64,000 nucleotides of DNA from Escherichia coli (GTDB lineage Bacteria > Pseudomonadota > Gammaproteobacteria > Enterobacterales > Enterobacteriaceae): NCBI RefSeq assembly GCF_011045215.1, contig NZ_CP049201.1. The stretch is one strand, 5' to 3'. A program made the position numbers and the translations under genes. Below the pieces are notes generated by a model that saw only the letters and a program-made list of their open reading frames with translations, was not told the origin of the DNA and ran no database searches. Position 1 is the stretch's first letter, and each line of letters opens with the position of its first letter. Shown piece after piece: positions 2,795 through 32,723 of this stretch.

Positions 2795-3844
2795 TTATTG
2801 CGCAAAGGGATTTTTCGTTTCGTATGACGTGTTATAAAGCGCGTCGGAAATTAAATACTGGTAAATATCATCAACAATTTCGATGCCTTCGACGGCGGCT
2901 TTGCGTTGTTTAATATCCTGATCCTGTCCGGGATAATAAACCTGATTAAAACCGGGCGCGGGGGTAATGGCATTTAATTCGCGCATGGTCTGGCTAAGAT
3001 GTTGACGGAATAATTCGCTGGAGGAGAAAAAGTTCGGGTTAATAACTACATGTAATTGCCCCAAATTACGCCCGGCGTGTAAATCGTCATACATCGAACT
3101 AACCTGTCGCCCGAACGGTAAGCCGAGTAAGACGCCTGAGAGGACGTCAATCATCATCATCAGGCCATACCCTTTCGGCCCGGCTGCGGGGAGCAGAGCA
3201 TGTACCGCGAACGGATCGGTTGTTGGTGCACCGTTTTTATCGACCGCCCAGGTATCCGGGATAGACATATTACGCGAGCGGGCGTCGAGCACTTTTCCCC
3301 ATGCCTGTACGGTAGTCGCCATATCAAAGGTAAGGATCTCGTCGCCTTCTCCCGGCGCGGCAAAGGCCAGTGGGTTAGTACCGTAGTAAATTTCCGCGCC
3401 GCCAAACGGCACCACCATTGGATCGGACTGGCACATCGAAATGCCAATTAATCCGGCGCGGGCTGCCTGCTGCACAAAATAAGAGATTGCGCCGCTGTGA
3501 CCCATCCGGCTGATACCGACCACCGCAACGCCATTTTGCTGGGCGGTTTTGATGGCATGTTCCATACCCATTTTCGCCGCGACCTGTCCGGCGGCATTGT
3601 CGGCATGTAAAATTGCCGAGCACGGCCCGGTTTCCTCAAGACGAAACTCCGGTTCGCGGTTGGTGCCGCCTTTTGAAATGCGTTCCGCGTAGTATTCCAC
3701 GCGCACCGCGCCATGAGAGTGGATCCCTCTGGCATCGGCGTAAACCAATACTTCAGCCACGGTTGCAGCGTGCTCACGTTTTAACCCAGCCTGGCAGAGT
3801 TTATTCTCAATTAGCTGGTGGAGTGTTTCCCGACTGATTTTCAT
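2795..3844 (-). CDS. allD: ureidoglycolate dehydrogenase
   Basis: 349-aa ORF, recognised translation. Confidence 0.9.
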   Translation of the reverse strand: MKISRETLHQLIENKLCQAGLKREHAATVAEVLVYADARGIHSHGAVRVEYYAERISKGGTNREPEFRLEETGPCSAILHADNAAGQVAAKMGMEHAIKTAQQNGVAVVGISRMGHSGAISYFVQQAARAGLIGISMCQSDPMVVPFGGAEIYYGTNPLAFAAPGEGDEILTFDMATTVQAWGKVLDARSRNMSIPDTWAVDKNGAPTTDPFAVHALLPAAGPKGYGLMMMIDVLSGVLLGLPFGRQVSSMYDDLHAGRNLGQLHVVINPNFFSSSELFRQHLSQTMRELNAITPAPGFNQVYYPGQDQDIKQRKAAVEGIEIVDDIYQYLISDALYNTSYETKNPFAQ

Positions 3845-22163: not shown

Positions 22164-22240
22164 GCGCCCTTAGCTCAGTTGGATAGAGCAACGACCTTCT
22201 AAGTCGTGGGCCGCAGGTTCGAATCCTGCAGGGCGCGCCA
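22164..22240 (+). tRNA. argU: tRNA-Arg (anticodon UCU)
   Basis: 77-nt cloverleaf GCGCCCTTAGCTCAGTTGGATAGAGCAACGACCTTCTAAGTCGTGGGCCGCAGGTTCGAATCCTGCAGGGCGCGCCA; anticodon loop CCTTCTAAG. Confidence 0.95.
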
Positions 22241-23646: not shown

Positions 23647-26262
<2,616 letters not shown>

Positions 26263-26926: not shown

Positions 26927-27751
26927 TCAGGCGGTGAAAGTACCAATAAAGGTTTCTACTTTGCTGTCTTTGAATTTCTCAACAAGCAGATCACGAAATT
27001 CGTTAGCCATTTCTTCCTGCACCGCTTCCAGCTGAATAATGCGCAGAACCAGTACAGGACGATCGCCAGTGATAATGCTGAGGCGTAATTTAAACGGACG
27101 TTCTTTCAGACCTTCAAACGGAACGCATTTAAATTCAAATGCCACTGGCATAATGTCTTTGGTCTTCGCTTCGACAGACTCCATCAGGGAGCGTTTGCCG
27201 CTGAAGTCATTATCTTCAAAATCAGCGGTCTGGTTTGCTTCAATCGTGATTTTACGGACTGCCGCAGCCGCTTTTGTTGCTTGAATGGCGTCACCATTAG
27301 CATCAAAGCCCACAAGGTAGTCGGCCCAGTCTTCGATCCATTCTGCCAGTGACTTCTGGGAGTTACGCTCGCCGTTAACAGACAACAGAGTAGAGAACGG
27401 TGCTGTCTTTTTCAGTTTGAGAGTGGCAGTGTTATCTGCGTGACCTGGCTCATCAATAGTACCCAGGTTAAGCACACTGACGGCACGCATATTATCGGCA
27501 TCGATAAAGCAGCGGGTGCCTTCATCTGCAAGATCTTTAGAATAACGGGTAAAATCATCGATGCTGGCAGTGGAAAGTGCACCACGGAAACGGAAGCGAT
27601 TTAAATTAAATTTTTCCAGATCATGAATGCGGAAATTCTCAGGCAATGCCACAGCATCGGCACCAATCTTACTGATAATTTCATTAACACCCTGAGCAGA
27701 AATAAGGGCATGGATTTGATTAATTGCGGTTGCGTCTAAGTTCTGAGACAT
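26927..27751 (-). CDS. phage protein of unknown function, YfdQ-like (DUF2303-type)
   Basis: 274-aa ORF; assignment from remembered similarity to CPS-53 yfdQ. Confidence 0.6.
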
Positions 27752-27816
27752 AATAAGTCCTCACTATATAAAGATATTCAGTGATGAGATAAATAATCAG
27801 TTTATTACGAACGATA

Positions 27817-28179
27817 TTAACGACCTGCTGCGCGGAGTTTTCCGTCAGGTTCACCGGCAAGAGTCAGTAATTGTCCCTGGTCTTCCTGCAGAATAGTCAG
27901 GCGACCACCGCGATTGACATACATCGGCGTTTCGGTGGTGTCTTCTTCGGAAATTTTCCCGCGGTTAGTTGGGCGAACATATGAGAGTTTGTGTTTGATT
28001 TTCACACGGTTCTCATCAAACGGTTCGATTTCCAGATTGAGTGAGACCTTCCCTTTGGTTTTCGTGTTCATCACACCGGAAGCGACCTCACTGAGAACTG
28101 CGCCGATTTTGGTTTCAAATACGCCGCCGTCCAGCTCCCCGATAAATGCCTGCACATCAGTACTGCGTTCGCTAGCCAT
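27817..28179 (-). CDS. phage protein of unknown function, YfdP-like (120 aa)
   Basis: start at MASERS... preceded by AGGAG; the longer ORF upstream looks like non-coding extension. Confidence 0.55.
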   Translation of the reverse strand: MASERSTDVQAFIGELDGGVFETKIGAVLSEVASGVMNTKTKGKVSLNLEIEPFDENRVKIKHKLSYVRPTNRGKISEEDTTETPMYVNRGGRLTILQEDQGQLLTLAGEPDGKLRAAGR

Positions 28180-28199
28180 TTTGCTGCTCCTCATCATAT

Positions 28200-28645
28200 C
28201 GACCCTGCAAGGTCGGTTGGTTTCTCCACAAAACAGAGAAGAACACCTGCGGTGGCAGCCGCCCGGATGGATTGGGTTATGAGCCCGTCGTCCGGTGATG
28301 CTCTTCTCTGTTTTGCAAAAAAGGACGGTACCAGCCGGAAGCAAGGGTACAAACTGGTACCGCCAGGACTACACACAGCATAAAGTTGTGGTGCCGGGTG
28401 CCTCCCGGTGCCTGGCGAAGGTTGCACACCAGGCGGGTGGGTATCCACAGAAGGTCGACTGTCAGCCTCAACCTTAACCCGCGTGCGCTGAGCCGCATTC
28501 ACCACAACGCTAAGGATTCTCTCTGGTTGAAAATACTTAGCTGTTATGTGCCTGCTTTTAGCCACATCAGGCGAGGTGGACCTGGTTATTCCCCAACAAC
28601 AAGGATTCGGTTAATCTGGATATCCCCAACAACAATAAGAGTATT
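28200..28645. other. GC-rich structured non-coding block (candidate phage ncRNA or leader); strand unknown
   Basis: nested inverted repeats, e.g. CAAAACAGAGAAGA 28229-28242 / TCTTCTCTGTTTTG 28302-28315, GGTACCAG/CTGGTACC, CGCCAGG/CCTGGCG, AAGGTTG/CAACCTT; direct repeats CCCCAACAACAA at 28591 and 28624; ORFs here are not protein-like. Confidence 0.3.
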
Positions 28646-28649
28646 CAAT

Positions 28650-29165
28650 GTGATCGCTGAATTAACGGCAGCAATGACGGCTATTCGTGAAACAGCCCAG
28701 ATTGCAAAACTAATGAACGAGGCAAAAACTCAAGCTGAAGTAAATGCGGCTATTGGTGAGCTAAACTCAAAGCTTGCGTCTATTCAGCGCGAATGCGTGT
28801 CTCTCGTTGAACTGGTGGGCTCTTATCAAGAAATAAATGCTTCTCTCAAAGCTAAAATTGCAGAATTCGAAAACTTTGAGGCTCAGACGGAAGGCTATAT
28901 CCTTAACCAACTTGAGTCGGGTACTTTTGTATACTCGAAGGAGGTAATCGTGAACGGTGGCAGCATAACCATGCATCTTTGCCCAAAATGTTTTGGACAA
29001 AAGATAGTATCGATACTTCAACCATTCCCGGTTAGCGAAGATGAGCTTTTTCATAAAAGCAGGTGCCTCCACTGTGAAAATAAGTTTCTGATGAATAAAA
29101 ATCCGGATTACGTATCGCCTCCATCCATTGAGGAGTTGTCCAGAAAACTTAACGGCAATCTGTAG
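28650..29165 (+). CDS. orphan coiled-coil / zinc-ribbon protein (about 165-171 aa), function unknown
   Basis: GTG 28650 (AAGAG upstream) or ATG 28674; coiled-coil-like N-terminal half; CPKC...(18)...CLHC motif; own terminator; between early-left operon and cI. Confidence 0.55.
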   Translation: MIAELTAAMTAIRETAQIAKLMNEAKTQAEVNAAIGELNSKLASIQRECVSLVELVGSYQEINASLKAKIAEFENFEAQTEGYILNQLESGTFVYSKEVIVNGGSITMHLCPKCFGQKIVSILQPFPVSEDELFHKSRCLHCENKFLMNKNPDYVSPPSIEELSRKLNGNL

Positions 29166-29204
29166 ATTACTACTGTTGTGGATATCCAGATTGTTAAAGA
29201 GCTA

Positions 29205-29229
29205 AGCGTCCTGTAGGGCGCTTTTTTGT
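29205..29229 (+). terminator. rho-independent terminator of the zinc-ribbon gene
   Basis: hairpin AGCGTCCTGTAGGGCGCT followed by TTTTTTG. Confidence 0.6.
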
Positions 29230-29393
29230 TGCTAACGAATCATCCTGGACTTCATATGCCCCAGGCGGCTACTTCCTGGGCGTCCTGCCTGTTCGTTTTT
29301 GACATTTACTGACTGCTTACGACACATGCACCGTGTTGCAACCAGATTTTGTTGTAATCCTGTAGTTGGTCTGGAACAAAAGATAAAATTAAA

Positions 29394-29430
29394 TTGCGAG
29401 ATATGCAAGTAATGTTTGCGAAATATGCAA
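29394..29430. promoter_or_regulatory. two 15-bp operator-like palindromes (TTGCGAGATATGCAA, TTGCGAAATATGCAA)
   Basis: same TTGCG-N5-GCAA family as sites between cI and cro. Confidence 0.4.
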
Positions 29431-29440
29431 ATTTATAGGT

Positions 29441-29464
29441 AATAAAAAGCCACCTTTCGGTGGC
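29441..29464 (-). terminator. rho-independent terminator downstream of cI
   Basis: hairpin GCCACCGAAAGGTGGC followed by TTTTTATT on the minus strand. Confidence 0.55.
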
Positions 29465-29484
29465 CGATGGATGGGATATTGAGG

Positions 29485-30177
29485 TTAATTATGTCTCTTA
29501 AGGGTTTGCGACTGACTGATTAAGACCTTTCCAAAGACCATGAATCGGTGTTCGTTTTCGCTAGTAATTCCCCATTCACGGTAAATCTGGTTATCAGAAA
29601 TCACCAGCAGTTTGTCAGGAATCATTTGAAGTCTTTTAACGTATATTTTGTCATCAAAACCAAAGACATATATACCATCACCATCAAACTGATTGATGCT
29701 GACATCAACGAAGATGAGATCTCCTGGCTCAATGGTTGGACACATACTGTCCCCACGAACGTTGATAACTTTGATGTGATTGGCTGGTCGTCCGCCGAAC
29801 ATTGATACAGCATTATCAGTTCTGTATTCGATGGCATGAATCACATCAATGACATCACCGCCCTGGATAAGGCCATTTCCCGCACTGGCACTGATATCCA
29901 GCATTTCAATACGGAACACATCCTTCACCTGCGCAACATCCTCATTATTACTGTTTTTATATACAGTATTACTTTTGTGGGCAGAGGTAAAGAGATCAGC
30001 AATATCAACACCTAAGCTCTTGGCAATATTACTCAGTGTTTGTTCGGTAAATTGTTTTTGCTTACCCGTTTCTAAGCGCGAGATGTTCGCCGCATCTACT
30101 CCTATTGCTTCAGCGAGATCGGCGATTTTCATGTTCTTCGCTTGGCGAAGTTGTCTGACTCGGTTTCCTATGTTCAT
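29485..30177 (-). CDS. phage CI-type repressor (XRE HTH plus S24 LexA-like peptidase domain)
   Basis: 230 aa; N-terminal HTH; C-terminal region with GDSM and a conserved Lys typical of S24 autopeptidases; divergent from cro. Confidence 0.8.
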   Translation of the reverse strand: MNIGNRVRQLRQAKNMKIADLAEAIGVDAANISRLETGKQKQFTEQTLSNIAKSLGVDIADLFTSAHKSNTVYKNSNNEDVAQVKDVFRIEMLDISASAGNGLIQGGDVIDVIHAIEYRTDNAVSMFGGRPANHIKVINVRGDSMCPTIEPGDLIFVDVSINQFDGDGIYVFGFDDKIYVKRLQMIPDKLLVISDNQIYREWGITSENEHRFMVFGKVLISQSQTLKRHN

Positions 30178-30197
30178 GCGTTTATTACATTTCTTTA

Positions 30198-30260
30198 TTG
30201 CGTGATAAGCAAATCAACTTGCGCAAAATAATTGCGTGAAATAACATGCATAACGCGCAA
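30198..30260. promoter_or_regulatory. OR-like operator/promoter region between cI and cro
   Basis: TTGCGTGATAAGCAA (30198-30212), TTGCGCAA, and reverse-complement site ATGCATAACGCGCAA (30246-30260) in the 97-bp divergent intergenic region. Confidence 0.5.
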
Positions 30261-30274
30261 TATTTGGAGGGCAT

Positions 30275-30535
30275 ATGCAATCACCATTACGAAATGTGCG
30301 TAAGGCGCATGGTTTCACTTTGCAGCATGTTGCTGCGGGTGTTCAAGTCAATCCAGCGACGTTGAGTCGTATTGAGAGGCTGGAGCAGATTCCATCTATC
30401 GAGCTTGCAGAACGTTTAGCCAATTTTTTTAAGGGTGAAGTCAGCGAAATGCAGATTCTTTATCCGGCACGTTTTCAATCTAGCCAAAACCAGAATGGGT
30501 TTAAACCACAGGAACAGGAGGTGAACCGTGGGTAA
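30275..30535 (+). CDS. Cro-like HTH regulator
   Basis: 86 aa; HTH GFTLQHVAAGVQVNPATLSRIER; divergent from cI. Confidence 0.7.
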   Translation: MQSPLRNVRKAHGFTLQHVAAGVQVNPATLSRIERLEQIPSIELAERLANFFKGEVSEMQILYPARFQSSQNQNGFKPQEQEVNRG

Positions 30536-31079
30536 GCATCACTGGAAAGTAGAAAAACAGCCTGAGTGGTACGTGAAAGCTGTCAGAAAAACTATCGCAG
30601 CGTTGCCGGGGGGGTACGCTGAAGCTGCTGACTGGCTGGATGTAACAGAGAACGCATTATTTAACCGCCTTCGTGCCGATGGCGATCAGATTTTCCCGCT
30701 GGGATGGGCAATGATTTTGCAACGTGCTGGTGGAACTCACTTCATTGCTGACGCTGTGGCGCAGTCTGCAAATGGCGTCTTTGTGTCTCTTCCTGACGTC
30801 GAGGATGTGGACAACGCCGATATTAACCAGCGCCTGCTGGAAGTCATTGAACAGATCGGCAGTTATTCAAAACAGATTCGTTCAGCAATTGAAGACGGTG
30901 TAGTGGAACCGCATGAGAAGACAGCAATTAACGACGAGCTGTACCTCTCAATTTCGAAGCTGCAGGAGCATGCAGCACTGGTCTACAAAATTTTTTGCAT
31001 TTCAGAAAGTAATGACGCCCGCGAGTGTGCAGCTCCGGGCGCCGTGGCGTGTCGTGACTGTGGAGAAACTAACGCATGA
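30528..31079 (+). CDS. phage CII-like regulatory protein (CP76-type)
   Basis: 183 aa; position after cro; family assignment from memory. Confidence 0.45.
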
Positions 31080-32147: not shown

Positions 32148-32521
32148 AGCTGATTCTGCCTTTTCCACCCAGCGTGAACACCTACTGGCGACACCCCAAC
32201 AAAGGGGCATTTGCTGGTAAGAGCCTGATAAGCGCGGCGGGGCGAAAATTCCAGAGTGCGGCGTGCACAGCAATAGTTGAGCAGTTACGTCGTCTGCCGA
32301 AACCAACGTCGGCACCTGCTTCAGTGGAGATCGTGTTGTTTCCTCCGGATAACCGGATCCGCGATCTGGACAACTATAACAAGGCGCTGTTTGACGCCCT
32401 GACCCACGCGGGTGTGTGGGAAGACGACAGCCAGGTGAAAAGAATGCTGGTGGAGTGGGGACCGGTTATCCCGGAAACGGATGTTGCGGGTTGTTGTTCT
32501 GCGGGTTCTGTTCTTCGTTGA
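32144..32521 (+). CDS. rusA: RusA-family Holliday-junction resolvase
   Basis: 125 aa; conserved RDLDN...ALFDALT...DD motifs; C-terminal tail atypical. Confidence 0.65.
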   Translation: MKLILPFPPSVNTYWRHPNKGAFAGKSLISAAGRKFQSAACTAIVEQLRRLPKPTSAPASVEIVLFPPDNRIRDLDNYNKALFDALTHAGVWEDDSQVKRMLVEWGPVIPETDVAGCCSAGSVLR

Positions 32522-32723
32522 CATGAGGTTGCCCCGTATTCAGTTTCGCTGATTTGTATTGTCTGAAGTTGTTTTTACGTTAAGTTGATGCAGATCAATT
32601 AATACGATACCTGCGTCATAATTGATTATTTGACGTGGTTTGATGGCGTAGATGCACGTTGTGACATGTAGATGATAATTATTATCATTTTGCGGGTCCT
32701 TTCCGGCGATCCGACATGTTACG

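Follow-up and report, generated by a model that had tools for sequence, protein, structure and literature searches.

A prophage in Escherichia coli carries its cI repressor gene between two sets of related short sites, and the locus raises the question of which protein reads these sites and what the set on the far side of cI controls. The locus lies in a 64,000-nucleotide stretch of contig NZ_CP049201.1 (the whole of which is called the window here), in which cI (29485..30177, minus strand, 230 amino acids) diverges from cro (30275..30535, plus strand, 86 amino acids) across an intergenic stretch of 97 bp. One set of sites falls in this intergenic stretch, and the other forms a tandem pair beyond the cI terminator. 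An initial annotation of the window had proposed that this pair may be an equivalent of the left operator (OL), allowing repressor looping, or may control an orphan zinc-ribbon gene and leftward early transcription. The comparisons described here suggest that the sites are most probably the right and left operators (OR and OL) of the prophage CI and, by lambdoid precedent, of its Cro too. The layout is very likely the ordinary lambdoid design, in this case for a widespread immunity type with as yet unmapped operators.

Sites on both sides of cI

The deduced CI has an N-terminal helix-turn-helix (HTH) domain (HTH_3/HTH_26 at amino acids 7-64) and a C-terminal peptidase S24 domain (Peptidase_S24 at amino acids 104-218). 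The self-cleavage motifs SASAG, GDSM, and VKRL are conserved in the CI alignment and would supply the Ala-Gly site and the Ser/Lys dyad expected for a RecA-sensitive repressor.

The motif TTGCG-N6-GCAW has four matches in the 64-kb window, all within 29394-30260 (starts at 29394, 29416, 30198, and 30246), in agreement with the initial annotation that related sites flank cI on both sides. Two of them make up the tandem pair, with centres 22 bp apart: the putative promoter-proximal left operator OL1, TTGCGAGATATGCAA (29394..29408), and the distal OL2, TTGCGAAATATGCAA (29416..29430). The other two lie between cI and cro, namely, OR3, TTGCGTGATAAGCAA (30198..30212), and OR1 (30246..30260), which reads TTGCGCGTTATGCAT as its reverse complement. 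OL1, OL2, and OR3 match TTGC-N7-GCAA exactly and OR1 has one mismatch. Between OR3 and OR1, we place an OR2 candidate, TTGCGCAAAATAATT (30219..30233), of which just the half TTGCGCAA is conserved and which is the weakest of the operator calls. The sites had been described as 15-bp palindromes; the outer 4+4 bases are indeed symmetric, but the remaining bases of the 15-mers are not. The tandem pair was also placed about 60 bp beyond the cI terminator, and this distance needs correction. A terminator scan puts the cI intrinsic terminator at 29438..29465 on the minus strand (hairpin 29448-29465), and the pair begins 8 nt past its T-tail and 55 bp past the cI stop codon.

The initial annotation had itself raised the possibility that the motif is frequent by chance, and chance copies of a short AT-rich dyad would be favored by the overall counts: 3.0 TTGCG-N6-GCAW matches are expected per 64 kb, so that the four found show no enrichment by number, and TTGC-N7-GCAA occurs 6 times against 2.8 expected. 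The positions tell otherwise. By our own calculation, four uniformly placed sites would fall within 867 of 64,000 bp with a probability P = 4(w/L)^3, ∼1e-5. A weight matrix trained solely on 12 sites from four other phages ranks the same four sites first to fourth in the window, with 19.7 bits for OL2 (the best site in the window), 17.7 for OL1, 16.0 for OR1, and 15.8 for the fourth, the next match having 12.3 bits. Together with the conservation of these positions across five genera and the covariation of the motif with repressor type, both described below, this leaves chance as an explanation with hardly any credit, and the comparative data effectively refute it.

Over 1.4 kb around cI, the window shares 99.4% identity with Shigella phage SfII and ∼90% with mEp460, Stx2a_1447/WGPS2, phiSTEC1575-Stx2k, and 1720a-02. 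More distant CI relatives were found by protein search in Salmonella phage Adana (83%), Klebsiella phages Kp4873-4 and ST147-VIM1phi7.2 (71%), and E. coli phage Eeyore (67%), and Citrobacter phage phiNP was found later as a further member of the family. We compared ten phages from Escherichia, Shigella, Salmonella, Klebsiella, and Citrobacter with cI genes 67 to 100% identical. All ten keep the same plan, with OR3 over the -35 hexamer of the cI promoter, the OR2 half TTGCGCAA in the middle, OR1 beside cro, an extra site in the first cro codons, and the tandem pair after the cI terminator with its centres 22 to 24 bp apart. When SfII-type and mEp460-type sequences are aligned, the half-sites are fixed and the central bases vary. 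The CI recognition helix VDAANISRLETGKQK is invariant in the family except in Eeyore and phiNP, where it reads IDGANVSRVETGKQK; phiNP carries the TTGCG-type site family as well, with OR1 14 nt from the cro start codon.

The possible extra site inside cro, GTGCGTAAGGCGCAT (30296..30310), has two mismatches and ranks seventh in the window with 12.1 bits. It spans codons 8 to 12, and the Salmonella, Klebsiella, and Eeyore relatives have an exact or one-mismatch site at the same position. It may serve as a downstream roadblock or in autoregulation, or it may merely reflect conserved LRKSH/VRKAH coding.

The sites also change when the repressor changes. Three immunity types share common flanks, and each has its own motif at both the left and the cI-cro positions. 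In SfV, SfIV, PhiR29, and an e14-like prophage, which have a different repressor between the same flanks, the motif GGTAC occupies both positions; their OR reads GTACCGATAGGGTAC, and beyond the cI terminator two GGGTACATT copies stand in tandem, 22 bp apart. In phage 569R4, the motif at both positions is CTTAGT/ACTAAG. Further types have motifs of their own, GTAACTAAAGGTACA in Pantoea phage AH07, GTCAGATATCCTAC in Yersinia phage YeP1, and another one in Pectobacterium phage ZF40. The homology breakpoints follow the same boundary: mEp460 homology begins near 29325, and matches to phages with other repressors cover short end stretches of the query and skip its middle, which holds the pair, cI, and cro. 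The tandem pair therefore lies inside the exchangeable immunity cassette.

This covariation bears on whether a regulator other than CI, that is, Cro alone, the CII-like YmfL (gene at 30528-31079, plus strand, from the open reading frame [ORF] and a domain search), or a host factor, binds the sites. Since cI and cro travel together, covariation with immunity type cannot separate the two proteins, and the sole published modelling concerns Cro. The two recognition helices are nevertheless alike (NISRLE in CI and TLSRIE in the HTH_3 domain of Cro), the ymfL/CII-like gene is common to relatives that have a different motif, and sites that change along with the repressor need no host-factor motif. 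We regard such another regulator as very unlikely.

Predicted promoters and the function of the left pair

Three promoters can be predicted over the sites from their conservation in the family. The promoter for repressor maintenance (PRM; 30184..30212, minus strand) would use half of OR3, TTGCTT, as its -35 hexamer and TGTAAT (30189..30184) as its -10 hexamer, with a 17-bp spacer. The family form is TTGCnn-17-TGTAAT followed by 6 to 7 nt (6 nt in the window) to the cI ATG, a distance from which the cI mRNA is predicted to be leaderless. The rightward promoter (PR; 30219..30247, plus strand) is predicted from TTGCGC, the conserved half of OR2, and TAACAT (30242-30247) with a spacer of 17 bp, and reads TTGCGC-17-TAACAT or TTGCGC-17-TAATAT in the family. 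It overlaps OR1 by 2 bp, and OR1 lies over its -10 hexamer and start site. Finally, the leftward promoter (PL; 29380..29408, minus strand) is predicted from TTGCAT (29408..29403), the right half of OL1 read on the minus strand, a 17-bp spacer, and TATCTT (29385..29380), which together match the sigma-70 consensus at 7 of 12 positions. Its family form is TTGC[AG][TC]-17-TATCTT, and 9 of the 10 phages keep the -10 hexamer TATCTT and the spacing. An operator half-site thus doubles as the -35 hexamer at PL, PRM, and PR alike, which is a difference from lambda.

Part of this geometry is hidden in existing records. In mEp460, Stx2a_1447, and 1720a-02, cI is annotated 15 codons short, as a protein of 215 amino acids starting with MKIADL (3166-3813, 3164-3811, and 1658-2305, respectively, in the stretches compared), even though the frame is open up to the MNIGN start used in SfII. 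The late start inflates the apparent intergenic region to 142 bp and conceals the relation of PRM to OR3. The map of operators and promoters corrects these annotations. Among the records of the closest relatives that we inspected (the SfII/mEp460/Stx2a/1720a-02 group), none has an operator annotation.

The position, spacing, and half-sites of the left pair are conserved in ten phages that share the recognition helix, the pair overlaps a conserved leftward promoter, and where a relative has another repressor, the motif of that repressor occupies the equivalent position. These findings support the part of the initial annotation that made the pair an OL equivalent tied to leftward early transcription. 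In the relatives, the genes beyond the pair run in the direction of cI and the early-left genes follow it directly.

Several observations weigh against the operator reading as a whole. A consensus promoter scan of the window calls none of PL, PR, and PRM, which we attribute to their -35 hexamers matching the consensus at 3 of 6 positions each. A lone site is not significant, as the best site of a random 64-kb sequence averages 15.5 bits, and OR2 is no more than a half-site in the window. In this lineage, ∼1.2 kb separates PL from the remaining early-left genes and holds a convergent gene and an internal terminator, and the early-left operon is further split by an insertion sequence (IS) element. 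With its operon broken in this way, PL of this prophage may no longer drive anything useful.

Some of these points would also suit an auxiliary site without a promoter of its own, one that raises the local repressor concentration, loops to OR, or acts as a roadblock behind the cI terminator: the predicted PL matches at 7 of 12 positions only and goes uncalled, and this prophage has no leftward gene within 1.2 kb. What speaks against a promoterless pair is that 9 of the 10 family phages keep the TATCTT hexamer with a 17-bp spacer to the OL1 half-site, that early-left genes adjoin the pair in the relatives, and that strong promoters occupy the same place among relatives with different repressors. 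There, the scan calls the left promoters of AH07 (TTGACA-17-TACATT, 10/12) and SfV (TTGACA-16-CATAAT, 11/12). We therefore consider the auxiliary role unlikely and favor an operator over PL.

The other proposal for the left pair, control of the zinc-ribbon gene, fares worse. This gene (28650-29165, plus strand) encodes 171 amino acids with a predicted coiled coil and a C-terminal CxxC...CxxC zinc ribbon, belongs to phrog_1244 (unknown function), and gave no PADLOC defence-system match. It is the nearest ORF on the left, and proximity is all that commends it as a target. Being on the plus strand, it reads toward the sites and ends 230 bp before them, and a terminator scan places its own terminator at 29204-29223, between its stop codon and the pair. 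The pair is also present in relatives that lack the gene, and any effect on it could only be indirect, through convergent transcription from PL. Direct control of this gene is accordingly most improbable. The gene looks like a separately transcribed insert that separates PL from yfdP and yfdQ, the older early-left genes; because it is inserted convergently there and has its own terminator, it also looks like an accessory gene expressed in the lysogen.

From the sequence we infer CI binding, promoter activity, an order of affinity among the sites, cooperativity, and, as a possibility, OL-OR looping over ∼0.8 kb. In the lysogen, CI dimers on OL1/OL2 and OR1/OR2 would keep RNA polymerase off PL and PR, and occupation of OR3 would limit PRM. 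CI at OL may in addition stop read-through of cI transcription. Self-cleavage of CI at the Ala-Gly site, stimulated by RecA, would then free both PL and PR.

The prophage is integrated at a tRNA-Arg gene (22164-22240). It differs at three places from the intact prophage that E. coli PapM-36-2 carries: an IS21-family element (istA/istB, 24094-26047) has inserted into the early-left operon, ∼1 kb has been lost from the replication/PerC region (31657), and a deletion of ∼6 kb (about 32476-32693) has taken away KilA-N, Q, a porin gene, and the lysis genes. The prophage is thus defective, with an intact immunity region.

Farther to the left, a minus-strand region at 28315-28538 resembles the small RNA (sRNA) STnc100, with a full-length match to the Rfam model that is below threshold (40.3 bits against a gathering score of 47; E value, 1.3e-6). 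It precedes the yfdP-like gene and agrees in part with a published alignment of degenerate "sRNA-17" copies of E. coli (PMC7719688). A minus-strand hairpin, GGTACCAG..CTGGTACC, followed by six T residues near 28320-28355 has the appearance of a terminator within the early-left operon. We considered sRNA-17 of E. coli RS218 (PMC7719688) as evidence for a PL transcript and rejected it, as its homologue lies at about 28320-28500, in the STnc100-like region and not at PL.

A structured RNA at the start of the predicted PL transcript

Downstream of the predicted PL, we found a conserved 70-nt element (29232..29301, minus strand) that would lie in the leader of its transcript and form helices P1, P1a, and P2. 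RNAalifold and a structure drawn by eye agree on the fold, in which a closing helix surrounds an invariant small GGC-AGGAC-GCC hairpin and a covarying second hairpin; little or no variation is seen in the unpaired stretches CCCACGAAGUAGC and AUGA. In the alignment, two helices covary and 94.5% of the cells are paired, compared to 71% after shuffling and 22 to 42% with slid partners, and compensatory changes are observed at ten pairs. A covariance model finds a single copy in the window (88 bits; the next match has 14 bits). Searches of Rfam with 27700-30700 and 29180-29440 gave no match for the element, and a literature search with words of its sequence returned as its sole match an unrelated yeast CRISPR-editing protocol.

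Unannotated copies of the element, one in each phage, recur among Escherichia, Salmonella, Klebsiella, Citrobacter, Pantoea, Yersinia, and Pectobacterium phages. At least 120 viral contigs carry it, and so do 1185 of the 5426 complete genomes of E. coli. Full-length, high-scoring copies come from Enterobacterales genomes only, apart from two short contigs of metagenome-assembled genomes labelled Lachnospiraceae and Bacillota, which look mis-binned. Matches to the core motif outside the Enterobacterales (Delftia, Reyranella, Gordonia, and others) score 22 to 29 bits, lack P2 where aligned, and were set aside as probably due to chance or coding.

Carriers of the element have differing repressors, and some (SPN3UB and mEp237) have other repressor types or other genes upstream. 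A search by regular expression for an S24 repressor in the upstream sequence proved too strict, finding one in only 15 of 98. A promoter matching at least 9 of 12 consensus positions ends a median of 16 nt before P1 in 66 of 122 distinct contexts, and the element usually starts ∼8 nt past the PL transcription start. The gap between the PL -10 hexamer and the element is ∼83 nt in the SfII/window lineage, owing to a segment at 29302-29379, compared to ∼15 nt in Eeyore and phiNP. The phages mEp460, Stx2a_1447, and 1720a-02 share the first part of this extra segment, and the element is absent from the stretch compared.

A coding explanation for the conservation was considered and rejected, since the ORFs through the element have no conserved start, end, or length and coding would leave the ten compensatory pairs unexplained. 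This rejection carries the caveat that 66 of 69 copies have an open antisense frame and that each of the three variable columns of the core falls on a third codon position.

The closest parallel in position is putL of phage HK022, which lacks N; putL is a structured RNA of ∼70 nt that begins only a few nucleotides from the PL start (PMC9378689). The leader element shares with it the length, the structured character, and the place at the 5' end of the PL transcript. It differs in having no sequence similarity to putL and in its shape, a closing helix around two hairpins instead of two adjacent stem-loops. It is also present in one copy, the covariance model finding no putR-like twin in the window. 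A comparison with the HK022 nun-cI-cro region gave no similarity, and the HK022 RefSeq record carries no put annotation.

The sequence GCTCTTTAACAA at 29191-29202 (minus strand) lies in the predicted PL transcript, just after the terminator hairpin of the convergent gene, read in reverse, and 0.37 chance matches are expected when one mismatch is allowed. It matches the core of the rrn boxA. A module of element, hairpin, and GCTCTTTAACAA occurs at a fixed offset in 25 of the 122 contexts. Neither a boxB-like loop nor an N-like ORF was seen in the window.

We tentatively propose, as a doubtful idea, that OL and PL gate a transcript that in most carriers opens with this newly described 70-nt RNA and that the RNA acts in cis on polymerase or on Nus/Rho, forming a second, unrelated class of put-like antiterminator.

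Relation to known switches and meaning for the family

The arrangement predicted here resembles that of lambda in many respects: the repressor has an HTH and a self-cleaving S24 domain, cI and cro are divergent and three sites cover PRM and PR, further sites cluster over PL beyond cI, and the cI mRNA from PRM would be leaderless. It departs from lambda in other respects. The sites are 15-bp TTGC-N7-GCAA dyads, compared to 17-bp sites in lambda, and OL has two sites only. OL immediately follows the cI terminator, and the 0.8 kb that separate it from OR lack rexAB. OR2 is centred near -49 of PRM, compared to -42 in lambda, and an N gene was not observed.

An OL without a third site has a precedent in the lambdoid switch of the Shiga toxin (Stx) phage 933W (PMC3317979). 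The repressor and operator sequences of 933W are unrelated to those described here, and its properties, noncooperative binding among them, were measured.

The nearest published work is a 2025 preprint on 1720a-02 (doi 10.1101/2025.01.01.630987), a phage of the same immunity family with ∼90% DNA identity. An AlphaFold3 model in that preprint places Cro on a 20-bp semi-palindrome 20 to 39 bp upstream of cI, the position that OR3 takes here, and the modelled contact of Arg32 with the guanines of the half-site fits the TTGC half-site. The preprint also reports that 1720a-02 Cro represses a phiNP PR reporter, a cross-reaction that the shared TTGCG-type sites explain. As far as the accessible text goes, this work is a model and not a footprint, is limited to the cI-cro region, and does not describe CI binding, a promoter map, or left operators. 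Our literature search likewise found none of the three for this immunity family.

SfV (record U82619) has the same architecture and flanking genes, and its record annotates a "putative operator region" between cI and cro. It differs in its repressor and in its GGTAC motif, and its left operators are unannotated despite the tandem GGGTACATT pair and a strong PL.

Of 5426 complete E. coli genomes, 1036 match at least 80% of a 1.5-kb query for the immunity region in the SfII or mEp460 form, and the region is also present in Stx2a-, Stx2c-, and Stx2k-converting phages. The operators themselves follow the expected lambda-like design and open no new question, which the leader RNA might. A covarying 70-nt leader structure, absent from Rfam, at the start of early-left transcripts in Enterobacterales prophages is a by-product of this analysis, and if the proposed antitermination were true, lambdoid phages without N could read through terminators inside the early-left operon. 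For the immunity family, the defined OR1 to OR3, OL1, and OL2, together with the three predicted promoters, make up a testable map for work on the induction of Stx phages, and the operator set bears on cross-regulation among co-resident prophages.

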